Positions 6,172 to 37,632 of a DNA stretch of 64,000 bases are shown one piece after another. Below the pieces are notes generated by a model that did not search any database, had not been told where the DNA came from, and saw nothing but the letters and a program-made list of their open reading frames with translations. The position numbers were made by a program, and so were the translations under genes. How positions within the stretch are numbered: position 1 is the first letter of the stretch; each line of letters starts with the position of its first letter. The stretch is from Staphylococcus phage LY01. The stretch is from the sequence record OR836606.1. The stretch is one strand, 5' to 3'.

Positions 6172-8907
6172 TTAATTTACTTTAAATAATACATTTTTGC
6201 CTTGCATCATTTCTTTATCATTAATGTCAATTTTACTTTCATAACCTTTAAGTAAAATTAAATCAATATCAGCGCTATAGAATTCATCGTTATGACTAAT
6301 TAAAAATACCTGTTCAAGACCCATTAACTCAATTTGCCTGTCTATCACATCAACAAATCTTCTTCGGTTATGAGAATCTAATGTACTATCCATTTCATCT
6401 AAGTAAAGAATATTATAATCTTGAGAAACTTTATTTAATAATGATAATGATAAGCTAATATTAGTTAAAGCTGTTTCTCCTTGGGAAGCTTCTTTAATAT
6501 CTTTAAGCTCAGTTCCATTACCTTTATATACATTGATAAAGAAATCTTTATCTGTCAAATCAAAATCAATTTTAAATGAATTATTATAAGCTACTGAAAG
6601 TAATTCATTAGTACTTACTGCAATATCTTTAAGATAGTTAGTAATGAATATTAATGGTATAGAGTCTTTCTTAGGATTTAATGAATCTACCACCATATTA
6701 TATTTCCATAATACTGATTCAATTTCATCAATCTTAGTAATAATAGAATTAACTGCAAAATATTTTTCTTTAGTGGATTCTAAATCATTTTTCTTCATAG
6801 TTAAATTATCTTTAATAGATTGAATCTTATTATCTGCTTTCTGATTAAGTTCATACAAATTGCTTAGTTTTGAAAGATCTTTATCAATATCATTAACTAT
6901 ATCATTTTTATCTTTAATTTTTGATTTAATTTCTTCAGATTTCTCTGTTAAATTAATAAATTCATTAATAATATTTAAGTTAGTGATTGCTTTTTCTTTA
7001 CGACCATTAAGGTAATTAAGATTCTCAGAAATTTCATTATTTTTATTTTTAATTTCTTCAATTTGTTTAATTAAATCTTCTTTATCTTCTTTATATTGAT
7101 CTAATATTTTCTTATTAGAATAATCTTCTTTAAGAGCATTTTCTTTTCTTTCTAATTCAATAGTCAATTTATCTCTATTAGTTTCATTAGTACGAATTTC
7201 ATTTGTCTTTTCAATTAATGAATTAAGACTATTTAGTTCACTAGAGAATGTATTGCCATTAGTAAATATTTCTTCAATACTATCAATATTAATTATTTCA
7301 AACCCAATATATTTAATTAAACTATTTCTACTAGTAAGTATATCATTGAATTTACGTGATAAGTCAATATGATTAGATAATAGTTTATTATCTTTTTCTA
7401 ATTCTTGATTATTTTTATAAAGTTGATTACCTTTATTTTCTAATTCAGAAATTGAATCAAATTCATTATCTTTAAAATCAGCTACTAAAGGAACAAATAC
7501 ACATTCATTATAGTGTTCATGATCTTTTTGTTCCAATATTTTTAATAAGTCTGATTTACCTTTAATTTGATTAAGCTTAGTATTAATTTCATTAAATTCA
7601 TTCTGGTTCATAGAAATTTTTTCATTATTACCTTTAATTTCTCTTTCAAAATCTCCATGAATAGAATTATATTTGAATTCATTATCATTAATGAATTCTT
7701 TAAAGTTATTTATTTTAGAAATTAAATCATTTACATATAATCTTAATGAATCTTCTTTAATATTATCTTTAATCTGTAATCCGAATTCACTTACAAAAGA
7801 CCCTCTAGAAATATCTACATCCTCTTTAATACCTTCTAAATCTTCTTTATACCCTTCAAGAATTGAATCAATTTCATCAGAAGCATCATAATCTTCATTA
7901 AACTTAATAGCATTCATACGAGATTCTATTTTAGATTTTCTACTAATTAAATCATCTAATTTATCTTGATTATTTTCTTTATCTTTTTCAACAGAAGTTA
8001 ACTCGTTATTAGTGTTATTTAATATAGTATCTATTTTATCTTTTTTATCATTAGCAGATTCAATAGTATATTTATTTAAATTCTCATTATCTTCTTTTAA
8101 TTTTCTTTCTTTTTCTAATTTTTGATTAAGTTCATTAATTTCATTAATTAATTGATTTTTATATTCAGTTGGATGAATCTCTTTGTATTTATCTTCCATA
8201 ATAGAGTTCATCTTAGTTTCATGAGTTGTTTTATCTTTATTAGCTTCATCAAGTTCATCCTGTAATTGATCAATTAAAGTTTCTAAATTCTCTTTTTCTT
8301 TTTTAATTTCATCAAATTCTTTATATTTATCTAAATCAAATCTAAGTGATTTTAAATCTTTAGTAATAACTCTTAATTTCTCATTAGCTACTTTATAAGC
8401 TTCTAAGTATCTATCAATGTTAGGTACAAATTTATTAATATATGATTTACGATCACCTGTAGTATAATCGATAAAGTTTGATACATTATCGCCTAAACGT
8501 CCTACAGTAAAGTATTCTTTAGATACACCTAATTCTTTATCTACTATTTCATTAAATAATTTAATGCCACCATTTTCATTGAGTTCTTCACCATTCTTCT
8601 TAATGAATGATTTATTTTGAGAACTATTTTTTCCATAGTGATGTTTAATTTCATAAAGATCATTATCTTTAATATAATCAATTTCTTTTAATCCTTTTTC
8701 ATTTTCTATGATAATATCTCTTCTTTGGTCATTAGATTCTCTATAAGGACTTAATTGAGAGAGTATGACAGTTTTTGAGCTTCCATTATCTCCAAGAAGC
8801 ATTATCATATTATTTTTACTTTTACTAAAATCAATTTCAACTTCTTTTAATCCCATACCAGCATAAATGCCGATAAAATTCTTTAACTTTAATCTTTTAA
8901 TCTTCAT
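6172..8907 (-). CDS. SbcC/Rad50-like recombination ATPase (T4 gp46 analogue)
   Basis: N-terminal Walker A LLGDNGSSKT, very long coiled-coil middle, C-terminal signature SQGETALT and Walker B/D-loop LYLDEMDSTLD ... FLISHN. Confidence 0.8.
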   Translation of the reverse strand: MKIKRLKLKNFIGIYAGMGLKEVEIDFSKSKNNMIMLLGDNGSSKTVILSQLSPYRESNDQRRDIIIENEKGLKEIDYIKDNDLYEIKHHYGKNSSQNKSFIKKNGEELNENGGIKLFNEIVDKELGVSKEYFTVGRLGDNVSNFIDYTTGDRKSYINKFVPNIDRYLEAYKVANEKLRVITKDLKSLRFDLDKYKEFDEIKKEKENLETLIDQLQDELDEANKDKTTHETKMNSIMEDKYKEIHPTEYKNQLINEINELNQKLEKERKLKEDNENLNKYTIESANDKKDKIDTILNNTNNELTSVEKDKENNQDKLDDLISRKSKIESRMNAIKFNEDYDASDEIDSILEGYKEDLEGIKEDVDISRGSFVSEFGLQIKDNIKEDSLRLYVNDLISKINNFKEFINDNEFKYNSIHGDFEREIKGNNEKISMNQNEFNEINTKLNQIKGKSDLLKILEQKDHEHYNECVFVPLVADFKDNEFDSISELENKGNQLYKNNQELEKDNKLLSNHIDLSRKFNDILTSRNSLIKYIGFEIINIDSIEEIFTNGNTFSSELNSLNSLIEKTNEIRTNETNRDKLTIELERKENALKEDYSNKKILDQYKEDKEDLIKQIEEIKNKNNEISENLNYLNGRKEKAITNLNIINEFINLTEKSEEIKSKIKDKNDIVNDIDKDLSKLSNLYELNQKADNKIQSIKDNLTMKKNDLESTKEKYFAVNSIITKIDEIESVLWKYNMVVDSLNPKKDSIPLIFITNYLKDIAVSTNELLSVAYNNSFKIDFDLTDKDFFINVYKGNGTELKDIKEASQGETALTNISLSLSLLNKVSQDYNILYLDEMDSTLDSHNRRRFVDVIDRQIELMGLEQVFLISHNDEFYSADIDLILLKGYESKIDINDKEMMQGKNVLFKVN

Positions 8908-8963: not shown

Positions 8964-9764
8964 TTATTTAAAATTATTTTTCACTAAATATTCTCTAACA
9001 AATTTTTCATCGGTAATTTCTTCAAATATATCATCTAAATCATCTTCAAAAATATTTATTTTATAACTATGATGATTATTATTAATAACATCATAATCAT
9101 AAACATTTAGCATATCTAAAAAAGAGGCTTTAGAAAAGAAAAATTCAATATTAAAATGATGTCTTAATGATTTTAATAAAATAAGATAATTATTAAAGAT
9201 ATCTTTAATTAAATTCTTAAAATCATCATGGTGCTTTATATTTTGATCTTGAATTTCATTTAATAATTTTTCAAGATTGTCAACTAATATCATTCGTTTT
9301 ATTTCTATTTCATCTTCTTCGTTTAAAATATCTTTTATAATACTATTAAATAAAATTTTATCAATTTTATTTTTTATAGGTTTGATTGTAAATAGTATTT
9401 TATCATTAACACTATTTTTATCTATACTAAAAATAGATTTAGTAGAATCTCTTTTAAATTTAAAATCTGCAATAGTTATAAGTGTTTCAAATGAATTTTT
9501 ATTATTAACATTGTAAAGAACAGGAGGTAGACATCTTGGTAAAAATTTTAAATTGCCTTTAATTGCATTATCTTCTTTTTTATAATGAACATCTATTGCA
9601 AGAGTTTCATATGAATCTTCTTCAGTCTGATTAATTATTTTTTCAGCTATTATTAAAGGTAAATAGTCATATAAAAATGAACCTCTATTATTCTTATCAA
9701 CTTCAAATAATTCATCATTTATTTTACATAAGAAATATTTTTTATCACTTTTCATTGCACCCAT
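8964..9764 (-). CDS. paralog-family protein A (266 aa) with conserved C-terminal tail FEEITDEKFVREYLVKNNFK
   Basis: N-terminal KKYFLCKINDELFEV and C-terminal HHFNIEFF...NNFK shared with 8 other genes; conserved gene junction TTTAAATAAAGGAG...ATG. Confidence 0.7.
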   Translation of the reverse strand: MGAMKSDKKYFLCKINDELFEVDKNNRGSFLYDYLPLIIAEKIINQTEEDSYETLAIDVHYKKEDNAIKGNLKFLPRCLPPVLYNVNNKNSFETLITIADFKFKRDSTKSIFSIDKNSVNDKILFTIKPIKNKIDKILFNSIIKDILNEEDEIEIKRMILVDNLEKLLNEIQDQNIKHHDDFKNLIKDIFNNYLILLKSLRHHFNIEFFFSKASFLDMLNVYDYDVINNNHHSYKINIFEDDLDDIFEEITDEKFVREYLVKNNFK

Positions 9765-9778
9765 TATATTGATCTCCT

Positions 9779-10558
9779 TTATTTAAAATTATTTTTCACT
9801 AAATATTCTTTAATAACTTTCTCATCTGTAATTTCTTCAAATACTCCAGATATTTTATATTCATCAAACAAATTATAATATTCATCATCTATATCATCAT
9901 TATTTCTTTTATCATTCTCTGGTATGTGCGAGAAACAACTATCTGATACAAAGAATTCTATATCAAAATGTGATCGGATTTGTGATAAAATTTCTAATAT
10001 ATAACTATTTACTTCGGTTAATATTTGGTATAAATCTTTATTATTTTTAAAATTAGTTTCTTTACTATTATTATAATCTGATATTAGATTTTCAGGACTT
10101 TCTATAGGTAAATTAAAAGGTATTTTTAAGATATTATCATTATCTAATATATTACCAATGACATTATTGAAAAATATTGAAGTTACATCTGGATTATATA
10201 TGGGTTCAATTCTAATTTTCAAACAATTTTTATTTTCTATTTTTTCATTGAATATAATATCAAAATCAATATTAAGTATATTTATTCCTTCTTTATTACC
10301 AACCTTATATTCTAAAAATGGAAAAATATTGCCAACTGATATAATTCCTGACCATAAATTATTTCCATTACTATCTTCACCCACAATCTCTTCAGAAAAT
10401 ATATCTATTTCTTCACTTTTTATTTGTAAATTAGGAAGTAAATAAGGTAGATATAAATGATCTTCATTTATACCATATCTAGATAAGTTATTAACTATAA
10501 ATAACTCATCTGTCATTTTACTTAAAAAATATGTTTTATCACTTTTATTTATACTCAT
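9779..10558 (-). CDS. paralog-family protein B (259 aa), tail FEEITDEKVIKEYLVKNNFK
   Basis: Same family; 3'-terminal ~60 nt nearly identical at DNA level to neighbours. Confidence 0.7.
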   Translation of the reverse strand: MSINKSDKTYFLSKMTDELFIVNNLSRYGINEDHLYLPYLLPNLQIKSEEIDIFSEEIVGEDSNGNNLWSGIISVGNIFPFLEYKVGNKEGINILNIDFDIIFNEKIENKNCLKIRIEPIYNPDVTSIFFNNVIGNILDNDNILKIPFNLPIESPENLISDYNNSKETNFKNNKDLYQILTEVNSYILEILSQIRSHFDIEFFVSDSCFSHIPENDKRNNDDIDDEYYNLFDEYKISGVFEEITDEKVIKEYLVKNNFK

Positions 10559-10574
10559 TAAATTGATCCCTCTT

Positions 10575-11279
10575 TTATTTAAAATTATTTTTCACTAAGT
10601 ATTTTTTAATAACTTTTTCATCTTTAATTTCTTCAAATAATCCAGATTCATTAAGTAAAAATTTATAATCAAATATAGAAAATGATGTGTCTTCGTGTTT
10701 TTCCATTTTTGTATATATTCCTGTCATAAAATATGCTAACTCTGATTTCCTAACATTTAATTTTAAATTTCCATAACTCATTAAATCCATAATATAATTT
10801 AAAAGAGTTTTATTAAATTCTTTGACTAGTAATTCTAATCCTTCAAAATTTTCAATAGTGTGCCTTATAGTATCACTTAAGATTAAGTATTTTCCATCTT
10901 CTCTATTTTCTATTTCGTAAATAAAAGATTCTTCTGGAAAATCTTTTTTAAATATTCCTCCATCTAGAATAGAATTAAATTCTAAATTAAAATCTGTTTT
11001 GCAAATTTTTAAATTTCTTACATAATCATTACTTATTATATTAGAATTTTGTTTGATTTTAACTACTTTATCATTAAAAAGAGAATAGGTTAAAGAAAGT
11101 TCAGATCGGTAATTAAGATATCCAGGGTCTTTATTCAAATTCTCATTTTTATTAATATATTTCATACACATTTTAGTAAATATTTCAGTCAATTTATCTA
11201 TACGAAAGTCAGTTCTATCTATATCGAAGTGAAGTATTTCTCCATCTAATTTATATCTATAGTAATTATTATATTCCAT
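10575..11279 (-). CDS. paralog-family protein C (234 aa), tail FEEIKDEKVIKKYLVKNNFK
   Basis: Same family. Confidence 0.7.
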   Translation of the reverse strand: MEYNNYYRYKLDGEILHFDIDRTDFRIDKLTEIFTKMCMKYINKNENLNKDPGYLNYRSELSLTYSLFNDKVVKIKQNSNIISNDYVRNLKICKTDFNLEFNSILDGGIFKKDFPEESFIYEIENREDGKYLILSDTIRHTIENFEGLELLVKEFNKTLLNYIMDLMSYGNLKLNVRKSELAYFMTGIYTKMEKHEDTSFSIFDYKFLLNESGLFEEIKDEKVIKKYLVKNNFK

Positions 11280-11300
11280 TATGAAAATCCTTTCTTTATA

Positions 11301-12110
11301 TTATTTAAATCCTTTTCTAACTTTAAACGCTTTCATTTCTTTTTCTGTTTTAATTTCTTTAAATAAATTATTTTCATCACTTTCTATTAAATCTAATATA
11401 TTAACTAAACCATAATTTTCATTATAAAAATCAATATAAAATTCTATATCATCTTTATACATATATTTAATTTCATAAAGAGACATTAATATACTAAGAT
11501 TATTCTGGTATAATATGATAAAGAATAAATCCTTAAAATCTTCTATAAATTTAATAATAGGATTTTTATCAAATGCTGATATTGGAAAACTTAAATCCAT
11601 AAATGGTTCATTGCCATATTTGATCTCATATAAATTCTTTTCAAACAATTCAATATTATTTACAAGAGCTCTCATTTTTTCATTTATTCCTTCATTAACC
11701 AAATTATTTTCATTTACTAAATCATTAGTAATTACATTGAAATATTCTTTATATAATGAATTATCAAAATGAAAATCTAATTTAAATTCTCCACTTTCAA
11801 TAGTTTCAATTTTATTCATTCTAGCAATATTAAAATTAATATGAAAATTAGTATTAAATTTTTTAAGAGTATCATTTTTATTATGTGTATTTCTAAAATA
11901 AATATCGCTATCAATTTCTTTATAATGAAAAATCATATAATCTTCTTCTTTAGAAATATTATCTATGAAAGATTTAGCATATCCTTTGCTACTTAAAAGA
12001 TTATTAATATCCATAGTAGTTAATACGTATGCAATATATTCATATCGGTTAAGATAATTTCTATCAATTTCAATTAATTCATCTCTCTCTTTATCTATAA
12101 AATATTTCAT
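11301..12110 (-). CDS. paralog-family protein D (~270 aa), tail FKEIKTEKEMKAFKVRKGFK
   Basis: ORF track starts at 12158 inside upstream gene; family-consistent start MKYFIDKERDELIEI at 12110 with AAGAAAGGA RBS and TAAT-ATG coupling. Confidence 0.6.
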   Translation of the reverse strand: MKYFIDKERDELIEIDRNYLNRYEYIAYVLTTMDINNLLSSKGYAKSFIDNISKEEDYMIFHYKEIDSDIYFRNTHNKNDTLKKFNTNFHINFNIARMNKIETIESGEFKLDFHFDNSLYKEYFNVITNDLVNENNLVNEGINEKMRALVNNIELFEKNLYEIKYGNEPFMDLSFPISAFDKNPIIKFIEDFKDLFFIILYQNNLSILMSLYEIKYMYKDDIEFYIDFYNENYGLVNILDLIESDENNLFKEIKTEKEMKAFKVRKGFK

Positions 12111-12111
12111 A

Positions 12112-12888
12112 TTAGGAAAATCCTTTCTTAACTTTAAATTTTTTAATTTCTTTCTCATCAGTTATTTCTCTAAAATATGCATCAACATCAAAATCATTTA
12201 AACTAATATACTTATCATATTCTTTTTCAAAACTAAAATCTTTTTCTTTTTCCCTTTCTTTACCACTAAAATTCCAATCTGTTGCAATAAGAAATTCAAT
12301 ATCTGAATGATCTTGTATCTGATCTAGCAATTCAAAAATTAATTTATTTGTAGTAGTAAACATCTTGTGTAAATCTTCCTTGAGTTCTAAAGGTCTTTTT
12401 CCCTTTTGTATATGACTTTTAAAATATTTTAAAAAGCGAATCATAACTTCTTCATTAAAGTCATGCGGTAAATCTAGTTCACCATTATCATCAAATATAC
12501 CAGATCTTTTACTAAATAATCTCTTCCCTATTTCACTATTATTATATAAAGGAATAGCTTTAAACTTAATATAATTATCGTCTTCTTCATTTAGACTAAA
12601 GCGTATTATAGCGTATATAAGAAGTTCCATTTTATTTTTCTTACCTTTATATTTGTATTTAACTTTGGGGAAAGCATTAAAATTTATTCTAAGACCAACT
12701 AAACCATTGTCATCATGTTCTTCATGAGATATAAGAAAACTCTCATTATAATTTATTTGCATTGTAGTGAATAGCTCACTTAAAACTTTCCACTTAAAGT
12801 CAAAATAGAGTGTTTCATTTTCATTGAAAGTTAATTCTATAAATTCATCTTTCGATTTACTAATGTAGTATTTGTTAATTTTCTCCAT
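12112..12888 (-). CDS. paralog-family protein E (258 aa), tail FREITDEKEIKKFKVKKGFS
   Basis: Same family (DHSDIEFLIATDWNF ... KKGFS). Confidence 0.65.
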   Translation of the reverse strand: MEKINKYYISKSKDEFIELTFNENETLYFDFKWKVLSELFTTMQINYNESFLISHEEHDDNGLVGLRINFNAFPKVKYKYKGKKNKMELLIYAIIRFSLNEEDDNYIKFKAIPLYNNSEIGKRLFSKRSGIFDDNGELDLPHDFNEEVMIRFLKYFKSHIQKGKRPLELKEDLHKMFTTTNKLIFELLDQIQDHSDIEFLIATDWNFSGKEREKEKDFSFEKEYDKYISLNDFDVDAYFREITDEKEIKKFKVKKGFS

Positions 12889-12915
12889 TTACTTAACTCC
12901 TTTTATTATAATAAT

Positions 12916-12941
12916 CCCAATACTAATTTAATAGTATTGGG
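12916..12941 (-). terminator. terminator hairpin cccaatacta...tagtattggg (same arm sequence as hairpin at 25676-25706)
   Basis: 10 bp inverted repeat downstream of 12993..13370 gene. Confidence 0.45.
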
Positions 12942-12992
12942 ATAACATTTTTATAATATATATTTATTCTAATTTTCAGAATTAGGCGATAC

Positions 12993-13370
12993 TTAACTAT
13001 TTTCCATTTCTTCACGTTGTCTTTTTAATCTATCAAGAACTTCTTTTTCTTCTACATTTTGATTTAATTCTGGTTCAATTAATAATTCTTTTTCTTTCAT
13101 ATCTTCTAATATATTTAATCCTTTTCCAAACTCTGGAGATTCATTAGGAGGATTAAATCTATTGTGTTTATTATCATAGAAATTTAATTTAACTAGATCT
13201 GAATTAGGTTCAATAACTACCTCAGCTTCTATGAATAAAATATCATAAGGGTCAGTGACACGTTTTCTATATAGCAAAGCTTTAGTATAAGAATCTTTTT
13301 TAAATCCATAATCTCTTAATTCTTGTTTAATATTTTCTTTACTTAAGTTTAATTTGTATTCTGATAACAT
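12993..13370 (-). CDS. hypothetical protein (125 aa)
   Basis: ORF track only. Confidence 0.4.
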   Translation of the reverse strand: MLSEYKLNLSKENIKQELRDYGFKKDSYTKALLYRKRVTDPYDILFIEAEVVIEPNSDLVKLNFYDNKHNRFNPPNESPEFGKGLNILEDMKEKELLIEPELNQNVEEKEVLDRLKRQREEMENS

Positions 13371-13519
13371 TACTTATTGCACTCCTTTTCATTGTATTCA
13401 TGAACTTCATTAAGATGTCTATGGTCATGATAAATAAACATGCAATCTTCTAATTTAGGTTCATATCTCTTTTTAGTTAATAATTCATATAATCTTTTTA
13501 ACATGATAAACCTCCTTCC

Positions 13520-13861
13520 TTAAAATGATACGTGTAGAAATATATAAAAATCATTCTTAACTCTATCAATTTTATATATTTCTGACATAAGAGCATGATA
13601 ATAAGATAAATCATAATAAAAGTTATCTTCTTTTAAGTCATCAATCATTAGATCTCTTAAAGTTTCATTATCTATAACAATAATATCATCATGCGGAACT
13701 TTTGATTTAAACTTTAATGTTTTATAAAGTTCTTTAGGTGTATTAAAATATAATTCAAATAAATGGTTATCTTCTTTTTTATATCGTTCTTGATCAAGAT
13801 ACCATTGTAAATCTCTTTGTTTACTTTTATTAATTCCGTATATACTTAAACTAAATTCCAT
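13520..13861 (-). CDS. hypothetical protein (113 aa)
   Basis: ORF track only. Confidence 0.4.
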   Translation of the reverse strand: MEFSLSIYGINKSKQRDLQWYLDQERYKKEDNHLFELYFNTPKELYKTLKFKSKVPHDDIIVIDNETLRDLMIDDLKEDNFYYDLSYYHALMSEIYKIDRVKNDFYIFLHVSF

Positions 13862-13915
13862 ATTCTCTCCTCCGATATAATATAGCTCCGTAATACATTA
13901 TAGAGATAAAATTAA

Positions 13916-14695
13916 TTAAAATTCAGCTTTTTGATATAAGTTTCCGAATTCATCTTTAACTATATCATCTCTGCCCTCAACTTCTTCAAATACTAAATCT
14001 CTGGTCATGGTAAATAATTCTGGGTATTCTTCTTGAAGTTCATCTTCTTCAATAATATTCATATCCATATCAGCAACTACTAATTCATATTCTTCAGGAG
14101 AATCCCCTAAAACAAAGAATTGTAGTGAACCTTTATAGACTTTTAATATAGAAGATAAATCTTGTTGATCTAATTCATTAATTTCTTGACTCAATTCTTC
14201 TTTTCGATCCAATTCTTTATTAATAGATTTTTCTTCTTCATCCAATTGTAATAATTTTGCGTCTAATTCTTCTCTAAAATCATTGTCTTCATCATTTACT
14301 TCTTCAGGTTCCATCATACTGTCTAGAATGTCTTTATTAGACATTGTATTAAGTTGATTAAGTACATTCTTAGCAAGCTCTTTATAATTATCTTCTGATT
14401 CATCATCAATAGACATTTTCTGAGCTTTCATAGTTAAGTCTATAATATCTTTCTTAACATTTTTCATTTGCATAATAGTATCTTTAATTTCTTTCTCTAC
14501 ACTAATAATGTTAGCTTCCATATTAGATACAAATGTATGTTTAGGATATTTCAGATTCTTAGTTAGATCCATTATACGATGTTCTAATTGAACTTCTTTC
14601 TTTTCCATTTTATCCTTAAATTTTACTAGCATTTTATATTCTTCCATCATATCATTAATTTGTGATATCAAATCAATTTCAACATTATCGGACAT
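13916..14695 (-). CDS. hypothetical acidic coiled-coil protein (259 aa)
   Basis: ORF track; heptad-like acidic repeats. Confidence 0.45.
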   Translation of the reverse strand: MSDNVEIDLISQINDMMEEYKMLVKFKDKMEKKEVQLEHRIMDLTKNLKYPKHTFVSNMEANIISVEKEIKDTIMQMKNVKKDIIDLTMKAQKMSIDDESEDNYKELAKNVLNQLNTMSNKDILDSMMEPEEVNDEDNDFREELDAKLLQLDEEEKSINKELDRKEELSQEINELDQQDLSSILKVYKGSLQFFVLGDSPEEYELVVADMDMNIIEEDELQEEYPELFTMTRDLVFEEVEGRDDIVKDEFGNLYQKAEF

Positions 14696-14751
14696 TTATT
14701 TTTTCAACTCACTTCCATCATATTAATTAATATAAAAGAAAGTTAATTAAA

Positions 14752-15390
14752 TTATTTAAAATTTTCTTTAACCGCTAACTTTTTTATTTCTTTTTCATCT
14801 TCTACCTTTTCTAAAATCTCATAAAGTTCATTAAAAGTATATTCATTTAAAATTAAATCTTTTCTAAATTCTTGACTGGTTATGAAATCGACATTATCTT
14901 TTTTTGAATTAACTGTGTATACTAATAAACTTATATCTTTTTCGTTATTAAAAAGATTAACTATATTTGAAATTAATTCGTATTCTATATTATTTATATT
15001 TTCAATTTGAATATAAGTTACATATGAAAATACATTACCGCTAATTAAAGTTTTAAAAGGTCCTATATTTTTACATTCTTTATCAATATTACGTAATAAT
15101 GAAAATACAAAATATAATTCAAAACAACCATTACCTTTATCAGTTATATCTATATAAAAACCTCTAGTTCTATAATAGGTATTTTTGTCCTTTATCAAAA
15201 TACCATCATTTCTTAACGAAAATGAGCCATTTTCATCTATCTTATTTTTAATATTGTTAGAATTAAATAACTCTTTAAATAATTCAATATTTAATTCTTC
15301 TTTACTAGTATCTTTTTTAACGGAAACTATGTCACCTCTATCATCAATCTTATAAAAATCATGATTTTTGATATATTGATTTATACTCAT
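14752..15390 (-). CDS. paralog-family protein F (212 aa), tail LEKVEDEKEIKKLAVKENFK
   Basis: Same family. Confidence 0.6.
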   Translation of the reverse strand: MSINQYIKNHDFYKIDDRGDIVSVKKDTSKEELNIELFKELFNSNNIKNKIDENGSFSLRNDGILIKDKNTYYRTRGFYIDITDKGNGCFELYFVFSLLRNIDKECKNIGPFKTLISGNVFSYVTYIQIENINNIEYELISNIVNLFNNEKDISLLVYTVNSKKDNVDFITSQEFRKDLILNEYTFNELYEILEKVEDEKEIKKLAVKENFK

Positions 15391-15406
15391 TAAGTTATTC
15401 TCCTTT

Positions 15407-16015
15407 TTATTTAAAGTTTTCTTTAGTTAGATATTTTTTAATTTCTTTTTCGTCTTCTAACTCTCTAAAATATGCATGAGGTTCAAATATATCAATACCA
15501 TTTATAAAGATTTTAATATTTCCATTATTTTCTTCTTTAAGCATTTCATCTAGCAAATTAGATAATTTATCTAAATCATTTTCATGTTCATCATAACCTA
15601 TAATATTTTCTTTATGAAAATTTTTCATCATGATTATACTGACACCGAGTGAATTCTTATCAACTTCTAAAAGTTCTTTATCCGCATGTCTACTAATAAA
15701 AGCCCTTAATTGCAAAGTTACTTTATTATCTTTAATTTTTGCATATGAGAATTCTAAGAATTCTACTGGAAGATTCTTTCTAACTTCATTATACATATTG
15801 CTGAAATATATATTTTCACTATCAATTAATTCAAAGAGTAAACTTAGATTATAATAAAGGTCATCATTTAAACTATAGTAATCTAAATTTCTTTCTATTA
15901 ATTTTTTATAATAGAGTTTATTTATCTTATCTTTAATATCACTTTCATCTTTACTAATTATAAAAAGCTCATTAATATCTTTATTATAATAGAATTTATT
16001 TTCTTTTAAAATCAT
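15407..16015 (-). CDS. paralog-family protein G (202 aa), tail FRELEDEKEIKKYLTKENFK
   Basis: Same family. Confidence 0.6.
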   Translation of the reverse strand: MILKENKFYYNKDINELFIISKDESDIKDKINKLYYKKLIERNLDYYSLNDDLYYNLSLLFELIDSENIYFSNMYNEVRKNLPVEFLEFSYAKIKDNKVTLQLRAFISRHADKELLEVDKNSLGVSIIMMKNFHKENIIGYDEHENDLDKLSNLLDEMLKEENNGNIKIFINGIDIFEPHAYFRELEDEKEIKKYLTKENFK

Positions 16016-16165
16016 ATCTTTTCCACTCCCTTAATTAGATTAATATAGAGATAATGAATTAATATAATTCATTATCTCATTTTTATAATATATATTTACA
16101 TACATTTTTCATCTAAATAAAAGAGATAACGGACAATTATAGTCCGTTATCTCATCTTTTTAAAT

Positions 16166-18712
16166 TTATTCTTTAGTTAAAGAGTATAAAGCTTGTACCA
16201 TATTATTTATGATAATTAGACTATATCTTCTTAGTAATATATTTAGTCGTTGAACAACTTATATTAAGTTGATGCTGATTAATCTAATAAGATACTTCCA
16301 GCAATTAATATTATTTATTGAGAGCATACAAGCATGTTACTCTCATTACCCAAATTACGTACTGAATTACCAGTGTAGTTTAGGTAGTTAGTTTTCTTAT
16401 TAAGAAGTTTATTAGCTTCTTTATTAGCCTCTACAGTCCAGAGAGATCTGATAGAAATCATATCCATTTACGTTATCTATATTAAGATAATATAGATCAG
16501 ACTATATCTTTACTTTAATAAGCATATTATATTTAGTCGTTGAACACTATTTGTAGTGATGCTGATTAAGATAATAATCTTTCCCAGCAATTAATAATAT
16601 TTAAATACGGCAATATAAATTACCGTCAAACGTTTATGTTATCTATAATAAATGATATCATAGACCAGACTATATCATCATCTCAATTGAGATATATTAT
16701 ATTTAGTCGTTGAACAACTTATATGAAGCTGATGCTGATTGCTCTAATAAGAGTTTTCAGCAATTAATAATATTTTCATTCTTAAATCACTTTAAGAAGC
16801 GACTTTTTCAAATCGGCACCTAACGCTATTTAATTTATAATTAAATTTGGACTATATCATAAACCTAAATATTAGGTTCCCTCACACTTCGGGAATTCAT
16901 TTCCCTACTCTACTCACTTCGTTATAGTATTTCAACTATACTTATTCTCTATATAAGAGTTACATTTATTGTTTTCGATAGTCTCTGAACGTTTATCCAT
17001 CATGTGGATACTTCGCTGCTAGACTTTCCCATTATTAAATACCCTTAGCATTTTCAGCATAGGTCATCAAAGAGATTTTTTCTGTCTTTCGACTGCATGT
17101 CACGCTATCCATTACTGGCATACGTTGTAGCTCTCTAAGCATTAGGGTTTACAAGCAATTCATAAGGTATTTTTTATCCTATATTACTATAAGACTGGAG
17201 CGTAAGTTACTCCGGCATAACTGTTGTGTATAATAGCGGTATCTATAAATACATCTTCATCAACAGGATATTCATGAACAACTTTAGGATAATCTTTAAG
17301 TACAATATCGTCTAAAGTAATTTCAGGAATTGTATCAACTGTAGTCAATATTTTAATTTTGGCAGGTGCAACATTCAAGAAATTTTCGCAAACTATATTA
17401 AATTAATACAGATCAGACTATATCATTACCTACTTTTAGGTATATTATATTTAGTCGTTGAACAAGTTTAATTGACTTGATGCTAATTAACCTATTAAAG
17501 TCTTTTAGCAATTAATAATATTTTCATTCTTAAATCACTTTAAGAAGCGACCAGTGTATTAATCGGATATCTTGAATAAACCACATGCTTATCTTCACAT
17601 ATTTCTGTAGCAGCTATATAAAGTAAATCAATTACAGTAAAAGTTCTACCTAAAGTATTTTCAAATAATTTAACTTTATGACGTTTACCTTGTCTATCAT
17701 TTACATATATAGGACTAAATCTTTCATTAGGATCCTTAATAAAGAATTCTAACATATTCTTAATAGCTTTATCATCAAACTGTTCATATACTTCTTCTAA
17801 TGATAATTCATTTTCATCAGTTCCAGTAGCGGTTTGGAAGGCATCTTTGTGGATTTCAATAAAATCGATAATGTATTTGCTAAAGAAAGGTAAGAATAAA
17901 GTAACTAATTGAGTTAATGGTACCCCTAACTGACCAAATTCAATTTGCATTTCATCCCATTTATTTGAATTAATCTTAGGTGAAGAAATAACTGAGCGAG
18001 TACTGTTATCTACCGTCTTACCTAAAATATTTCTTTGCATCATACCAGTTTTACCTGATAGTTCTCCTGAAGTTAATTTAACGTATATTTCAAATAATTT
18101 ATTTTGAATATTATATTTAGTCGTATTAGCTACAAAGTCAAATGAATTAAAACTAATTGAATCTACAGATCTTAAGATGCTTGCATACATATCATTTATT
18201 TCTTCAGTATCTTGAATTTCCCCTGAAGTTTCATTAGGATTAAAGTCACGATAGAAAGCAGGTATTACGAGCCATTTATCTGTGAATATTCTATCTTTAG
18301 GAGTATTTTTAAGCATATCAATTTTTTCATTTCGGATACGAGAATCATTTTTTCTAAATTTAAGATTTTCATAATTATCGTATAAGAAATTTAATCCAGT
18401 TTCACCATTTTCATCTGGAACTAATTGTCCTTTCTCAATTTTAAAGTAATCAGAACCTTGAATACATAGATCTATATTCTTATCTAATTCTCTCATAGCT
18501 TTATAAGCTACAGGATTCAAGTATTTGCCACCTAAATTAATCCAACCTATATTATTCTTTCTTTCATCAGTACCTATTAAACCAAATATTTCATATGAAA
18601 ATAAACCATCTTCTTTAGGTAAAGTTCCTGAATCAAAGAAAATAGGATTAGTAACTTCTTTAGCTCCATAAGCTGTAATAACTTGATCAACATTAACCAT
18701 ATCTATTTTCAT
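16166..18712 (-). CDS. multisubunit RNA polymerase beta-prime-like subunit, N-terminal fragment; six exons approx 17561..18712, 17192..17388, 16812..16825, 16622..16630, 16349..16464, 16166..16198 separated by five group I introns
   Basis: RNILGKTVDNSTRSVISSPK matches RpoC NLLGKRVDYSGRSVIVVGP; SRYPI ~ NRAPTLH; spliced model reads ...SLGAD|FDG|DMISIRSLWTVEANKEANKLLNKKTNYL, collinear with E. coli [34 protein letters not shown]; gene ends ...NLGNESVQALYSLTKE* near the YYMTRD-equivalent point. Confidence 0.7.
16199..16348 (-). ncRNA. miniature group I intron (~150 nt) in RNAP beta-prime-like gene
   Basis: P1: exon GAGAGU pairs IGS GCUCUC with terminal U-G; P/Q/R/S core; 3' end ...AUAAUAUG| leaves in-frame terminal exon VQALYSLTKE*. 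Confidence 0.65.
16465..16621 (-). ncRNA. miniature group I intron (~157 nt) between FDG micro-exon and DMISIRS exon
   Basis: P1: exon GACGGU pairs IGS GCCGU with terminal U-G; core P/Q/R/S; 3' end ...CGUAAAUG| is the only junction that restores the third Asp of DFDGD in frame. Confidence 0.7.
16631..16811 (-). ncRNA. miniature group I intron (~181 nt) between ...LGAD and FDG
   Basis: Exon CCGAU| pairs IGS GUCG (U-G). 33 nt 5' segment GUCGCUUCUUAAAGUGAUUUAAGAAUGAAAAUAU is identical to the intron at ~17390-17560. 3' end ...AUAAACG| is the only phase-0 G downstream of an in-frame UAA. Confidence 0.65.
16826..17191 (-). ncRNA. group I intron, ORF-less (~366 nt), larger relative of the miniature family and of the IStron intron core
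   Basis: P AUGAAUUGCUUGUAAAC, Q AUCUAGCAGCG, R UUCAGAGACUAUCGAAAAC, S AUGAUAUAGUCC; compared with 24270-24600 the 5' P1-P2-P3 segment, R/P7 and the S/3' segment are largely conserved, P5 and the central domain diverge; putative P1 GUCU|-GGAU; proposed 3' end UUAAAUAG|. Confidence 0.65.
17389..17560 (-). ncRNA. miniature group I intron (~170 nt, boundaries +/- 10 nt) between SRYPI... and ...ENFLNVAPAK
   Basis: Same core; shares the 33-nt 5' segment and the CCGAU| - GUCG P1 arrangement with the intron at 16631-16811. Two phase-consistent junction pairs are possible, so the ends are approximate. Confidence 0.55.
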
Positions 18713-25712: not shown

Positions 25713-26372
25713 TTATTTAAAATTTTCATTTATTTTATATTTTTTAACTTCACTTTCAGAAAGTTCTTCAATTATACTATTCCTTCTGGTATTAAATACA
25801 ATTTCAATATCTTCTAAATAAAATATATTACTATCTTCTATCTTCCCATTTTTAAATAAAGATAGATTAAATGAATATATTTTCCATCCTAAAATAAATT
25901 TAATTTTGTTTAGAATAGAGCAAACTACATTTTCAAAATTATCTTTATCTGTATGGATTATAACATCGTTATCCGAATATTCTATATGAAATTCTTCATT
26001 TAAGTCTATTAAAGATATTTTAGTTGCATGTAAATCATAATATACACCTAAATCTAATTTCAATTCAATATCAGAACGATACTTAGTGAATAATATAGAA
26101 ATAAAATTATTATTATCAATATCACTTGAAAATACTAATGACACATCATTTTTATTTAAATTATTCGAAATAAAATCTTGGATTAAAATTTTAAAATATA
26201 AGAAAAAGCTGATTTTATCATTTAATTTAAACACATTATTTTTTCTTAAGTTTACATCTTTAGAAAAATTGAAGTTCAAATAATTAATTTTTAATCTATA
26301 ATAAAAAGAATCATCGTTGAATCTCAATAAATTTGTATAGTGATTTATTAATTCATCTCTAAATTTTTCCAT
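25713..26372 (-). CDS. paralog-family protein H (219 aa), tail ...IEELSESEVKKYKINENFK
   Basis: Same C-terminal motif family as the 8964-16015 array, located 10 kb away. Confidence 0.5.
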   Translation of the reverse strand: MEKFRDELINHYTNLLRFNDDSFYYRLKINYLNFNFSKDVNLRKNNVFKLNDKISFFLYFKILIQDFISNNLNKNDVSLVFSSDIDNNNFISILFTKYRSDIELKLDLGVYYDLHATKISLIDLNEEFHIEYSDNDVIIHTDKDNFENVVCSILNKIKFILGWKIYSFNLSLFKNGKIEDSNIFYLEDIEIVFNTRRNSIIEELSESEVKKYKINENFK

Positions 26373-27122: not shown

Positions 27123-28313
27123 TTAAATAAATGTCTTTTTAATTGTTTCATTCATAATTAATCTCTTTAATTTTCCTTTAGACATTTTAACAAGTGTAGA
27201 TGTTTTACTGTATTTCTCATTTGAAATATTAAATGTATTGTCTTTCATATTCATGTATTCTTTAACAAATTGTCTTTTCTGATTTTCCGTAAAATTATTT
27301 TCAATTAATTTTAATATCTCTTTAACTGCAATATCAGTATATTTATTAGCTGATTTAAAAGATAATAAGAATGATACCTCTTTATAAATATTATCTATTA
27401 ATGTAAAGAAACCAATTTTTGAAAAATATTTAACTTTATCTTCATTCTCAGCTTCCTGTATTTTATCGGTAAAATAATTATAATTTATTCCATTATTATA
27501 TCCTAAGAATTCATGTCCATATAAATTATCTATACCTAATACAAATCTTTCATATAAATAATATTTATTAAATTCATCATATTTAAGACTATTTATTTTA
27601 GACTCCATTAATAAATCTGCGTACTCTAGATCTTCTTTACTATTAATATGATTATTAAATAATTTATAAAAATTGTTTATAATTTTTAATTTAAGCACAT
27701 TATCTTTATGTGAAATATCCAAATCTATTAAACTAGATAATAGTTTCATAAATTTCTTTTTATCACCATTAAACGATAATTTAGTATCTAATAATTCTTT
27801 ATTTAAATTAAAAAATTTATTATTACTTATTTCATCCATATCATTAATGAATTCATCTATATATTCTTCTTTTAATAATCCAAATGAAAAATTTTCATAA
27901 GAAGATTTAAAACTATAAAGGAATTTAATGTTTTTAATATCATTATCTTTACAAAATTTATTTATATAAAATATTAAAGGTAATTGAGATATATTTAAAA
28001 TTATATTTCTATCTTCTTTATAACCATGCATAATAATATCTTTAATAACATTCTTTAAAAATGCTTTTAGTGATTCATTATCTGTATAGTAATAATTAAA
28101 TACAAAACTTATTAAAGAATTACCGTTAAAATTATTTAATATAATATTATCACTTATTGAAATATCAATCTTCTTTTCGAATACAATATCAATATCTGGT
28201 ATTTTTAATAATTTTTCTTTATCAATTTCATTAAGTTCATGATCTTCACTAACATCAATATAACCAATATCATAGTTAATAAAGAAATCTTTCATTGATT
28301 CACTCATATCCAT
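27123..28313 (-). CDS. hypothetical protein (396 aa)
   Basis: ORF track. Confidence 0.45.
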   Translation of the reverse strand: MDMSESMKDFFINYDIGYIDVSEDHELNEIDKEKLLKIPDIDIVFEKKIDISISDNIILNNFNGNSLISFVFNYYYTDNESLKAFLKNVIKDIIMHGYKEDRNIILNISQLPLIFYINKFCKDNDIKNIKFLYSFKSSYENFSFGLLKEEYIDEFINDMDEISNNKFFNLNKELLDTKLSFNGDKKKFMKLLSSLIDLDISHKDNVLKLKIINNFYKLFNNHINSKEDLEYADLLMESKINSLKYDEFNKYYLYERFVLGIDNLYGHEFLGYNNGINYNYFTDKIQEAENEDKVKYFSKIGFFTLIDNIYKEVSFLLSFKSANKYTDIAVKEILKLIENNFTENQKRQFVKEYMNMKDNTFNISNEKYSKTSTLVKMSKGKLKRLIMNETIKKTFI

Positions 28314-28339
28314 TTCACTCTCCTATTAATTAAAAATTA

Positions 28340-28374
28340 AATTGAGTTGATAATTTAACTTACCAACTCAATTA
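28340..28374 (-). terminator. terminator hairpin aattgagttg...caactcaatt
   Basis: 10 bp inverted repeat between convergent/tandem gene ends. Confidence 0.4.
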
Positions 28375-28386
28375 TATAATATATAT

Positions 28387-30453
28387 TTAAATAAATATTC
28401 TAGAAACTAAATACTTAGATCTTACCTTTTTAAATTTCTTTTTAAAATCAGGTGTTATATTTTTATTATTATTGATTATATTAATATAACTATCAACTTC
28501 TAATTCATTTTCTTCATTAATATATTCAAATTTATTGTAATATAAAATACTATAGATATATTTATCTTCTTCAAAAGAATTATCTGATAAAGCCAACAAA
28601 TTATAAATCAAAGACATATATTTAGATAAACTTTCCCCATCCAAATCAGTAAAGATATTATCCATATTATTTATAAATTTATTTATATCTTTTCTAAAGA
28701 AATAACTTCCATCATTGATATCCAATTTTTTGTCTGGGTATAGACTGATTTCTCTATGCGAATATAAAAAGATAGTAGCAATATCCTCATCAGTTAATTT
28801 TTTCTTAAAAGTAACTCCTTGCATCATTATTTCTATTTTTTTAATATGCGTCCTATTTCCTATTACAGTAAAATTAATATTAAAGTTATCAAATTCAATA
28901 ATAGCGTTGGAATTTACTTTAGATGCATCATTAAAATTTTCTAATAATTTTTGCTCCATATACTGCATATTATTTTTTAATATATCACGATTTAATTCTT
29001 TTTTCACACTTAACTTATAGAAATATTCCATATTGATTTCGCTAGGTTTCATAAGAAGATTATTTACTTCTCCATTTGTTATGAAATCATCTAATAATGC
29101 AAAAGAGCTATCCTTCAATTTACTTACATCAACATTGGATAAATCTAAATATAATTTTTTAGTGTTATTTTTAAAATAATCAATTATTCTATTCATAACT
29201 TTTTCTTTTGATTCTCTAACATCTCTAATTACAGGCTTATATACACTATCATCTAAAACTTTGTATATACTTCTAATCATTAAAATTTCGAGATCGTCCA
29301 ATTCTATAAAGAAATCAAATAAACTTTCACCTATTAAAATCTTAGATGAGTCTTTTAATAGATTGGTATCATCTTTAATATATTTTCTAAAATTAGATAA
29401 TGTATTGTCAATATAATCTCTCAATATTTTTTCAAGGTCTTCATCTAATTCATTTTCTTTAATTATTAAATTAATATTATCTTCTATATTATCCGAATCA
29501 CTCTGTTCTATAAATTTATTAATAGAATCTGTTTTCATTTTAATACTTCTAATTAAATTAAACATGATTTCAATATCATCATTATTAGATAAAGATAATT
29601 CAGCATTTTCTAAGTGTTTTGGATTTTTATTTAAATAATCCTTATCTATTAAATCTAATATTAATTTGTAATTGATATTAGATGTTAAAGATAATATTGA
29701 TTTCAAAACTTCCGAAATACTTCTATCTACATTGATAATACTTCTATCCATGTTTGATAATTTGAAATCTGACCCTTCATATATGCTATTCGCTAATATA
29801 AATACTACTTCTGGAACTTCTTTAAATATAATATTCATGTCAGGTAATTCTTCATTTTCAATTGAATTTAGCCATTTTTTTCTTAATGAATTAGATACCA
29901 TTGTATCGATAGCTAGTAAAGATTCTAAACTAACTTGTTTATTTTTGTTTAAAAAATCTTTTTTCACATTTTTATCTAAAAATTCTATAGGTAGGCCATT
30001 ATCTGTTTTAAAAATATTAATATTTGTATTTCCATTTCTTAATAAGAAAGAGTCTTCCAATTTGGAGTTATTTTCTATAGATTGATGTATTTGATGTTTA
30101 CTTCTTTTAATTATGTCTACATCGTATATAAAAGATCTGAAAAATTTATCTGTACGACCAATACTATTCTCATCTAATAAATCTCCTTTATCAAGTCTAT
30201 TTATTAGGAAATTAATATATTTATCTTTATATTCATTAGAGCGAGTTAAAAACATATGTGTCATTCCCGCTTTAGAATAATTAATGAAATTTATTAAATT
30301 CTCATATACTCTAGAATTTTGATTATCATTTAATTTATCCCTAGTATTAGTATTTTTTCTATTATACATAGGTTTTAAATTAGAAAATTCTTTATTATAA
30401 ATAGTGACATTAAATAATTTTTCTAATTCATTTTTTACATTCTTATTTAACAT
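28387..30453 (-). CDS. hypothetical protein (688 aa)
   Basis: ORF track. Confidence 0.45.
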   Translation of the reverse strand: MLNKNVKNELEKLFNVTIYNKEFSNLKPMYNRKNTNTRDKLNDNQNSRVYENLINFINYSKAGMTHMFLTRSNEYKDKYINFLINRLDKGDLLDENSIGRTDKFFRSFIYDVDIIKRSKHQIHQSIENNSKLEDSFLLRNGNTNINIFKTDNGLPIEFLDKNVKKDFLNKNKQVSLESLLAIDTMVSNSLRKKWLNSIENEELPDMNIIFKEVPEVVFILANSIYEGSDFKLSNMDRSIINVDRSISEVLKSILSLTSNINYKLILDLIDKDYLNKNPKHLENAELSLSNNDDIEIMFNLIRSIKMKTDSINKFIEQSDSDNIEDNINLIIKENELDEDLEKILRDYIDNTLSNFRKYIKDDTNLLKDSSKILIGESLFDFFIELDDLEILMIRSIYKVLDDSVYKPVIRDVRESKEKVMNRIIDYFKNNTKKLYLDLSNVDVSKLKDSSFALLDDFITNGEVNNLLMKPSEINMEYFYKLSVKKELNRDILKNNMQYMEQKLLENFNDASKVNSNAIIEFDNFNINFTVIGNRTHIKKIEIMMQGVTFKKKLTDEDIATIFLYSHREISLYPDKKLDINDGSYFFRKDINKFINNMDNIFTDLDGESLSKYMSLIYNLLALSDNSFEEDKYIYSILYYNKFEYINEENELEVDSYINIINNNKNITPDFKKKFKKVRSKYLVSRIFI

Positions 30454-36559: not shown

Positions 36560-36784
36560 TTATTTCATATTTTTTCTAACTAAATAATCTTTTATTTCTT
36601 TAATGTCATATTTTTTAGATACTTCAAACATAAGTTCTCTAAGTTCTTTTAATTCTTTTTCTAGAGAATATTCTTCTTTATCTTTTAATATATCTTTTTC
36701 TACTTGCTTAGCGAATCTAAGTTGCATTCTTGAATAAAGTTCATCCATAGAAGAACCATTATCATTAAAAATATCTGGATTCAT
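36560..36784 (-). CDS. small coiled-coil protein (74 aa), C-terminus ...KEIKDYLVRKNMK
   Basis: ORF track; C-terminal motif related to the paralog-array tail. Confidence 0.45.
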   Translation of the reverse strand: MNPDIFNDNGSSMDELYSRMQLRFAKQVEKDILKDKEEYSLEKELKELRELMFEVSKKYDIKEIKDYLVRKNMK

Positions 36785-36789
36785 AACTG

Positions 36790-37071
36790 TTATTTCCCTC
36801 CATTTTTATATAATAATCTATTATATCGGGATTTTATGCTTCTGTTATTAATTTTTTCTTTAGATAAAGCTTCTTTTAGCTCTTTAATTTTTCTTTCTTT
36901 TTCTTTATTATCTTCAACAACTTTACTAGCCAAAGATAAAGCTTTATCAACTCTATTATTTAAATTATAAAATTTCTCTTCTGCTTTCTTAGTTCTAGCT
37001 ATAGTTTTCTTTACCGTATTGATAAATTCTTCTGAACTAATTATTCTTTTAATAGCATTCATATACTTCAT
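36790..37071 (-). CDS. small coiled-coil protein (93 aa)
   Basis: ORF track. Confidence 0.4.
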   Translation of the reverse strand: MKYMNAIKRIISSEEFINTVKKTIARTKKAEEKFYNLNNRVDKALSLASKVVEDNKEKERKIKELKEALSKEKINNRSIKSRYNRLLYKNGGK

Positions 37072-37075
37072 TCCT

Positions 37076-37351
37076 TTATTTAAGATTATCTCTGATAAAA
37101 TTCTTTAAATACTTTTTAGTTACTTCAGAATGTGAATTTAATTCGTTAGAAAGACGAACTAATTCTAGTTTCACTTCATTCAATTTCTTTTCATTAGTTT
37201 GATTAGAACTTTCTATTCTATTAATTAATGTACATATGATATCATTTAAATAATGATAATTATCTTTCATAGTATTTAATTTAATTTCATTCATTCTAGT
37301 ACGTTCTTCTAATTCGTCCATACGCTTAATTAAACTTTTTTCATTATTCAA
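37076..37351 (-). CDS. small coiled-coil protein (91 aa)
   Basis: ORF track. Confidence 0.4.
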   Translation of the reverse strand: MNNEKSLIKRMDELEERTRMNEIKLNTMKDNYHYLNDIICTLINRIESSNQTNEKKLNEVKLELVRLSNELNSHSEVTKKYLKNFIRDNLK

Positions 37352-37371
37352 AATAAAATCACATCTCTTTA

Positions 37372-37620
37372 TTATTTAAAGTTTTCTTTAACAATTTCGT
37401 TAGACAATTTATTTATATAATCATTCTTAAATTCTGTATGCTTAGAAATTGACACTATTGCTTCTTTAAGAAGTTTATTTTCTTTTTTAAGATTTTCATT
37501 ATATGCATAAAGATTATTTACAGCTTTATTTAATTTTTCAATTTCAAAATTAAGACGATCTAAATTAGCTATGCTCCTAAATTCAATAGTTTTCAATTTT
37601 TCTTTAATTTCTTTATCCAT
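37372..37620 (-). CDS. small coiled-coil protein (82 aa), C-terminus ...NEIVKENFK
   Basis: ORF track. Confidence 0.45.
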   Translation of the reverse strand: MDKEIKEKLKTIEFRSIANLDRLNFEIEKLNKAVNNLYAYNENLKKENKLLKEAIVSISKHTEFKNDYINKLSNEIVKENFK

Positions 37621-37632
37621 TTTTAATCACCC

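Follow-up and report, generated by a model that had tools for sequence, protein, structure and literature searches.

A lineage-specific array of divergent acidic proteins in Staphylococcus phage LY01 shares a C-terminal tail that recurs beyond the array

The DNA considered here is a 64,000-nucleotide (nt) stretch of Staphylococcus phage LY01 (record OR836606.1; hereafter the window), in which open reading frames (ORFs) were called mechanically. Our subject is a minus-strand gene array at positions 8964–16015, most of whose products end in one and the same peptide tail. The array region has a G+C content of 20–28%, and the DNA between 8900 and 16100 is 80–87% identical to that of phages S6, DC4, PALS_2, Madawaska, MarsHill, Machias, PB50, AH12 and SA1; for the window the DNA identity to S6, PALS_2 and DC4 is ∼85%. 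S6, DC4, PALS_2 and their relatives are AR9/PBS1-like staphylococcal jumbo phages that are presumed to carry uracil-DNA (10.1101/2020.12.14.422802; PMC10303552). The genes of the array, the gene that follows it and a dispersed copy are listed below, with orthogroups (OG) numbered as in the among-phage comparison.

15407..16015 (−): OG13, 202 amino acids (aa), first gene of predicted early operon 1; tail FRELEDEKEIKKYLTKENFK
14752..15390 (−): OG22, 212 aa, family member; tail LEKVEDEKEIKKLAVKENFK
13916–14695 (−): embedded non-member, 259 aa, isoelectric point (pI) 4.3, net charge −37; no tail, no family-profile match
13520–13861 (−): embedded non-member, 113 aa; no tail, no family-profile match
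12993–13370 (−): embedded non-member, 125 aa; no tail, no family-profile match
12112..12888 (−): OG05, 258 aa, first gene of predicted early operon 2 (a five-gene block); tail FREITDEKEIKKFKVKKGFS
11301..12110 (−): OG04, 269 aa, corrected start MKYFIDK
10575..11279 (−): OG03, 234 aa, family member
9779..10558 (−): OG02, 259 aa, pI 4.4, family member
8964..9764 (−): OG01, 266 aa, the member next to the SbcC/Rad50-like ATPase gene
6172–8907 (−): SbcC/Rad50/SMC-like ATPase, 911 aa, directly downstream of the array
25713..26372 (−): eighth member, lying apart from the array, 219 aa, within a further predicted early operon; tail IIEELSESEVKKYKINENFK

A preliminary description of this locus spoke of eight consecutive paralogs. 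The ORF listing and alignment instead give seven tail-bearing genes, split into blocks of five and two by three unrelated, tail-less genes; the further copy at 25713–26372 does exist, as the eighth member of the family rather than the ninth. The conserved final residues described at the same time are real: the seven array proteins, which end ...[FL]xE[IL]xDEKEIKKYLVKxNFK, and the dispersed copy all share the C-terminal tail. So is the N-terminal motif, found in most members in the form K-Y-[YF]-x-x-K...[DE]-[ELI]; a supposedly common HFDIEFF block is clear in three members only. A profile of the eight members found no further match in the window (best unrelated ORF, E = 0.05), and a reading of the three embedded genes as degenerate members was rejected, as none matches that profile. 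One listed ORF, 11301–12158, had been over-extended: a family-type start (MKYFIDKERDEL) lies at 12110, directly after the stop of 12112–12888, and therefore the OG04 and OG05 genes do not overlap. Proteins of the array are ∼200–270 aa long, tail-bearing arrays elsewhere include proteins of ∼140–150 aa, and all members are acidic (pI 4.4–5.7). The acidic embedded protein (13916–14695) is present in all ten Staphylococcus phages; a possible counterpart in the corresponding slot of Listeria phage LPJP1 (16937–17746) was judged by eye only.

Scans of all members and their neighbors against Pfam, PHROGs and NCBIfam returned nothing above noise: PHROGs gave no family match to the members, the single marginal match (E = 0.003) being to a family of unknown function, and a test for phiKZ-like inner-body and ejection proteins in Pfam, PHROGs and BFVD showed no similarity to known phage structural families. 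When 1.84 billion cluster representatives were searched with the profile, 13 proteins matched the family; these, like the named word-indexed matches, point to no source other than Staphylococcus jumbo phages and unnamed metagenome contigs. The family is confined to one phage lineage, the Staphylococcus AR9-like jumbo phages. Neither the family nor the tail is described in the DC4, PALS_2 and MarsHill/Madawaska/Machias papers or in a jumbo-phage comparative survey, a statement that covers the open-access literature only and leaves room for an earlier description elsewhere.

The tail behaves as a shared, strictly C-terminal module on dissimilar proteins, and it extends beyond this family. A 16-position scoring matrix, built solely from the tails of array members in the ten phages, was applied to the complete PALS_2 genome. 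At a score of ≥10 it picked out 28 of 282 C-termini and none of 78,418 internal windows; at ≥0 it picked out 35 of 282 C-termini, against 0.11 expected, and 30 of the 78,418 internal windows. The thresholds were picked after inspection; enrichment was seen at each one tried. The PALS_2 consensus is [ST][DE]-E-K-E-[YIV]-K-x3-V-K-x-N-F-K-COOH, within a wider and again strictly C-terminal motif, [ST][DE]-E-K-E-[YIV]-K-x3-[VI]-[KR]-x-[NGS]-F-[KRI], by which we define a Staphylococcus jumbo-phage tail superfamily. Invariance is greatest in the last six residues, V-K-x-N-F-K-COOH (phenylalanine at −2 in 34 of the 35 PALS_2 tails, valine or isoleucine at −6 likewise in 34), and substitutions are conservative: K/R, I/V/Y, N/G/S and F/L/M. 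Tail genes fall into at least six PALS_2 clusters, at 67–71, 75–78, 96–103, 169–171, 177–186 and 191–205 kb. Two further tandem arrays, of six ∼150-aa tail proteins (75082–77924) and of seven 150–260-aa tail proteins (96406–102697), lie outside the regions covered by the LY01 window; their proteins mostly start MKYYK... or MRYFK....

As a control we used AR9, which is similarly AT-rich: none of 198 C-termini in its first 148 kb (59% of the genome) scored ≥0. The corresponding slot of AR9 and LPJP1, between the genes for the virion RNA polymerase β′ subunit and SbcC, holds unrelated genes and no tail genes (19% of LPJP1 was scanned). Within the LY01 window the eight members score 24–44 on the matrix, internal windows of other proteins never exceed 5, and five C-termini of the 49 other proteins pass the threshold against 0.2 expected (P ∼2e-6). 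The tail-like ends outside the family, together with an intervening ORF, are as follows.

36560..36784 (−): tail-only protein, 74 aa, coiled-coil-like, no N-terminal hairpin; score 23.3, tail KKYDIKEIKDYLVRKNMK
37076–37351 (−): small protein with weak tail-like end ...FIRDNLK
37372–37620 (−): small protein with weak tail-like end ...IVKENFK
37633–38088 (−): ORF without tail, between weak-tail proteins
38088–38276 (−): small protein with weak tail-like end ...IVKENLK
27123..30453 (−): proteins of 396 aa (...IMNETIKKTFI) and 688 aa (...SKYLVSRIFI) with weak tail-like ends, membership uncertain, no Pfam match

Most of these belong to a minus-strand run at 36560–38552, downstream of a RecD-like helicase gene (38573–39799), in which six proteins of 62–93 aa, at least some of them coiled-coil-like, are broken by one 151-aa ORF; ends in this run include ...YLVRKNMK. 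Outside the training array the tail and the N-terminal KYY/KYF hairpin co-occur (8 of 22 tail bearers versus 12 of 229 other proteins, Fisher P = 6e-5), and tail bearers that lack the hairpin are found in PALS_2 at 70086 (185 aa), 77496 (142 aa) and 204780 (95 aa). The idea of a common C-terminal tag on variable proteins, put forward in the preliminary description, holds in that the tag is strictly terminal and wider than claimed; part of it, though, may be fold core. A protein search with a 42-residue tail profile returned one LY01 protein, and a profile of the tail gave insignificant matches to ribosomal proteins only among PDB sequences. A scan of IMG/VR for a VKENFK-stop DNA pattern was set aside, its 15 single matches all being due to chance (out of frame or without the tail). 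The spacing E-[I]-K-K-Y-[L]-V-K-x-[NG]-[F] resembles the first helix and turn of a SAP domain. A SAP or helix-extended-helix (HeH) motif, however, consists of two helices with a glycine-containing turn between them, ∼35 residues in all; the LY01 chain ends at the turn, and no member has a Pfam SAP or HeH match at E up to 1.

With 24 N-terminal and 22 C-terminal residues removed, hhalign relates only OG01–OG02–OG05 and OG12–OG22, most pairs having a probability of 0. That the central regions are unrelated, as first described, is mostly right by sequence; the structural models are less divided. AlphaFold models of a long member (8964–9764; mean predicted local distance difference test score (pLDDT) 71, predicted template modeling (TM) score 0.71) and a short member (15407–16015; 71 and 0.65) have the same order of elements: N-terminal β-hairpin, helix, five-strand antiparallel sheet, one or more helices, strand, strand and C-terminal helix. 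A Foldseek search of the long model against BFVD returned only the family's own members (19–29% identity, TM score 0.63–0.69). Judged by sequence, the middles would have either diverged beyond recognition or been assembled as mosaics; the topology common to the two models favors the divergence of one fold over mosaic middles. In both models a confident β-strand lies just before the tail helix, and the strand with the helix N-cap at the start of the tail reaches a pLDDT of 86 in the short model, its highest block, and 82 in the long; the last 6–8 residues are modeled at lower confidence. The suggestion that the tail might simply be a core strand of a known fold finds some correspondence in that confident strand, but no known fold was matched.

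At the DNA level the gene ends form a family of direct repeats.

8964–9026, 9779–9841, 10575–10637, 11301–11363, 12112–12174, 14752–14814 and 15407–15469 (−): tail-coding direct repeat, 63 nt

The repeat family is thus real; the regular spacing first ascribed to it is interrupted by one gap of 2640 nt among intervals of 655–815 nt (in order 815, 796, 726, 811, 2640 and 655). Likewise the gene ends, described as near-identical, are so among the three SbcC-proximal genes (87–92% DNA identity, exact runs of 25–32 nt), whereas the remaining tails are 67–73% identical with exact runs of no more than 16 nt; and the junction said to be near-identical from gene to gene, AATTTTAAATAAAGGAGATCAATATAATG, occurs with variants at three junctions only. 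For 28 gene pairs we compared DNA identity with that obtained when codons were resampled from the window's own codon usage. The three SbcC-proximal tails exceed expectation (0.87–0.92 observed, 0.77–0.83 expected, P ∼0.004); in the other 25 pairs DNA identity is what protein conservation and AT codon bias predict. We therefore reject the notion that the DNA repeats are conserved beyond the need of the protein, except among these three genes, for whose excess identity recent duplication or gene conversion is the better explanation. At the Rfam gathering threshold no RNA family lies inside the array.

All genes between SbcC and the virion RNA polymerase β′ gene were clustered in the ten phages. 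The slot holds from 7 (LY01) to 15 (DC4) tail genes drawn from 24 tail-bearing orthogroups, and a metagenome contig carries a further variant: the array is not static. Cassette shuffling, for which the repeats had seemed ideal, could apply only to the three most similar tails; gene order is largely collinear rather than shuffled, with local duplications (OG15 flanking OG16, OG02 twice in SA1) and one orthogroup, OG21, at two positions among the relatives. Of the embedded genes, OG06 and OG08 keep their position in each of the ten phages, and OG07 is found in six of them. Tail-gene orthologs are mostly 59–83% identical (∼90% in two groups) versus 85–89% for flanking genes, and their ends are more conserved than their middles. 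In PALS_2, which has no OG02, the OG03 body runs through a tail into the junction that elsewhere follows OG02 (TAA AGGAGATCAATATAATG...), and therefore the end points of the deletion lie inside the tail repeats; an extra DC4 gene, OG19, is phased at the tails in like manner. The loss of OG02 is what tail-to-tail homologous recombination would produce, and supports a part for such recombination among the most similar tails.

Early promoters of AR9, used by the injected virion RNA polymerase, have the consensus AAATATATATTAT-N6-G (PMC5312081). Allowing no more than one mismatch the window contains eight matches, against 1.08 expected, and six of them are exact. These, with the associated RNA structures, are listed here.

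16078..16097 (−): exact early-promoter match, heads operon 1; predicted start 16078
16048..16078 (−): stable 5′-terminal stem-loop of predicted transcript 1, −15.3 kcal/mol, z = −7.7
12946..12965 (−): exact early-promoter match, heads operon 2; predicted start 12946
12914..12943 (−): 5′-end stem-loop of predicted transcript 2, −16.9 kcal/mol, z = −7.0
28369–28388 (−): exact early-promoter match, upstream of the operon holding the dispersed copy
20904 and 34149 (−): other exact early-promoter matches
40078 (+): other exact early-promoter match
16123..16153 (no strand assigned): GC-rich terminator-like hairpin with T runs on both strands, separating the virion RNA polymerase β′ gene from the array

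Each of the six exact sites is followed by a stable stem-loop beginning at +1 to +5 (z from −3.6 to −7.7), a structure absent from both one-mismatch sites; it might stabilize the mRNA from its 5′ end or act as a regulatory element. A sigma-70 promoter scan was uninformative (77 sites, 76 expected). In PALS_2, 27 of the 35 tail genes stand downstream of an early site in a co-directional run, compared with 59% of other genes (P = 0.025), and all 35 are on the non-structural strand, compared with 173 of 234 other ORFs (P = 6e-5). The array genes are thus predicted to be expressed early.

Because the proteins are small and acidic, have expanded in a single lineage, are encoded in predicted early operons, vary in copy number and keep conserved ends, the account we prefer, tentatively and at somewhat short of even confidence, is a lineage-specific expansion of early host-takeover or counter-defense proteins with a common terminal module that docks or acts as a clasp. 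The two early operons would encode one superfamily of small, acidic, cytoplasmic proteins, each comprising an N-terminal β-hairpin (KYY/KYF), a fast-diverging α/β body and a C-terminal strand and helix tail ending ...V-K-x-N-F-K-COOH. The array would have grown by tandem duplication and divergence, with whole genes lost or gained partly through homologous recombination between the tail-coding repeats. The variable body may give each copy a separate target, while the conserved termini would close the fold and present the terminal peptide to one shared partner, which might be a host or phage hub or another member of the family.

Several points weigh against this account. That the genes are expressed early, that their products act in the cytoplasm, that their function is directed at the host and that they have a partner in common are all things that we infer; the partner is hypothetical, and the tail could be conserved for folding alone. 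Acidity, together with an AT-driven composition, is widespread in this proteome and is no pointer to function, and the divergence of orthologs is only moderately above that of neighboring genes. The promoter consensus comes from measurements in a different phage, AR9. Both AlphaFold models reach medium confidence and draw on shallow alignments (8 and 10 sequences), and only secondary structure and co-occurrence suggest that the tail strand pairs with the N-terminal hairpin.

A broader proposal, which we think doubtful, sees in the tail an address label used at C-termini across the proteome: ∼12% of all the proteins of the phage, almost all of them from predicted early operons, would be handed to a common hub through an exposed V-K-x-N-F-K-COOH. 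The label could be a degron or adaptor-docking peptide through which a protease clears or deploys early proteins on schedule, or it could tether them to a phage replication or transcription factory. Because these uracil-DNA phages are without any known uracil-DNA glycosylase inhibitor (PMC10303552), one acidic member could be the missing inhibitor.

It is somewhat unlikely, in our view, that the tail is purely structural, a strand that with the N-terminal hairpin makes up the folding core or oligomerization clasp of one divergent fold and has no docking role. The confident strand and helix N-cap at its start, its co-occurrence with the hairpin and the single topology of long and short members, whose middles have no detectable sequence similarity, all speak for such a core or clasp; yet proteins that lack the hairpin, and are unable to share the fold, also end in the tail (36560–36784 in LY01; 70086, 77496 and 204780 in PALS_2), the most invariant last six residues are modeled at lower confidence, and the strict terminal position seen in 35 of 35 cases is not needed by a purely structural element. 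A mixed model, in which the strand would dock onto the hairpin and leave the terminal VKxNFK accessible, appears to fit best.

Capsid packaging, also raised in the preliminary description, would make these proteins internal head or ejection proteins delivered with the DNA, analogous to T4 internal proteins or the phiKZ inner body, with the tail as packaging signal. A polymorphic locus with a conserved terminal peptide does resemble the T4 internal-protein locus, and the annotations of Madawaska, MarsHill and Machias call the adjoining SbcC-like ATPase ‘virion associated’. We nonetheless hold packaging to be improbable: early promoters of the AR9 type head both blocks, no tail gene falls within a block of structural genes, a cargo of ∼35 different proteins would be unusually large, the signal sits at the C-terminus and protease processing is without support. 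None of 15 DC4 virion proteins maps to UFVDC4_00025–00042, which counts weakly since that proteome is shallow, with 26 peptides (PMC10638138). Most improbable of all is that conservation acts on the DNA or RNA, with gene 3′ ends and junctions serving as recombination, translational-coupling or RNA-processing signals. The excess DNA likeness of the three SbcC-proximal tails, their common exact runs of 25–32 nt and the one deletion with breakpoints inside them are as such signals would have it; against this, 25 of 28 gene pairs show the identity predicted from protein and codon bias, the amino-acid replacements are conservative ones, every copy of the motif is in frame and runs right up to the stop codon, arrays elsewhere in the genome carry it amid different flanking sequence, and duplication or gene conversion accounts better for the extra identity.

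T4-type internal proteins (IPI, IPII, IPIII and Alt) bear a capsid-targeting sequence and are encoded at a locus that is hyperplastic among T-even phages; IPI* is an anti-restriction factor. Like the LY01 proteins they are small and dissimilar, carry one short terminal peptide, and show whole-gene variation with conserved gene boundaries. Their signal, unlike that of LY01, is N-terminal, ∼10 residues long and removed by the prohead protease, and the T4 proteins end up inside the capsid; the LY01 motif is C-terminal and ∼16–22 residues long, its genes have early-type promoters, packaging and cleavage are without support, and there is no sequence similarity between the two. No N-terminal peptide of the kind removed by the prohead protease was recognized in the LY01 family: the shared peptide ends at the stop codon, and the N-terminal motif is a predicted β-hairpin within the fold.

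Poxvirus ankyrin families offer a second likeness, their conserved C-terminal F-box-like (PRANC) module docking to Skp1/SCF. They too are lineage-specific expansions for host interaction that vary in copy number and join a variable target-binding part to a conserved C-terminal module; PRANC, however, is a recognizable domain with a known partner, whereas the LY01 module is shorter, unrelated in sequence, only putatively a docking module and found in phages of a bacterial host. Adaptors such as SspB end in a C-terminal ClpX-binding (XB) peptide, which tethers cargo-binding bodies to a hub and, like the LY01 tail, is short, basic-hydrophobic and ends in lysine. This is a functional analogy only: XB follows a flexible linker, the LY01 tail a predicted strand and helix, and we know of no SspB-like system in Staphylococcus. 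Within the jumbo phages, Bacillus phage G carries ∼35 zinc-ribbon copies as a lineage-specific expansion (PMC7824862), again tens of paralogs of a small module in one lineage with a presumed regulatory or conflict role; the zinc ribbon is a known fold, whereas body and terminal module of the LY01 family match no known family or fold.

Staphylococcus jumbo phages are therapy candidates, transduce host DNA and have no assigned function for ∼80% of their genes. The tail groups ∼35 ‘hypothetical’ proteins per genome into one recognizable class, and offers a testable handle on it: 16 residues to fuse, mutate or use as bait. Should the tail bind a single hub, it would show how a giant phage organizes or times many early effectors, and the variable bodies would be a ready library of binders to S. 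aureus targets or defense systems. The range of 7–15 copies among otherwise similar phages allows direct comparison in host-range studies.

Some neighboring features of the window deserve mention. The SbcC-like ATPase is 76–95% identical across Staphylococcus phages and ∼39% identical to AR9 g139; it is annotated as virion-associated in PB50 as well as in Madawaska, MarsHill and Machias. On the other side of the array the gene for the N-terminal subunit of the virion RNA polymerase β′ (16169–18712, minus strand), intact in DC4 and SA1 (503 aa), is broken in LY01 over its last ∼120 codons by five ORF-less group I introns.

17393–17588, 16828–17218, 16646–16819, 16477–16631 and 16200–16391 (−): group I introns, Rfam RF00028

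One of the exons is a few codons long and lies at the catalytic DFDGD motif. On the same strand, between divergent family-B DNA polymerase gene fragments at 24725–25234 and 21051–21644, is a TnpB-type ORF (23010–24158; OrfB_IS605, with Cas12f-like TNB and HTH domains), and a one-mismatch early-promoter-like site is found just upstream of it, at 24175–24194.

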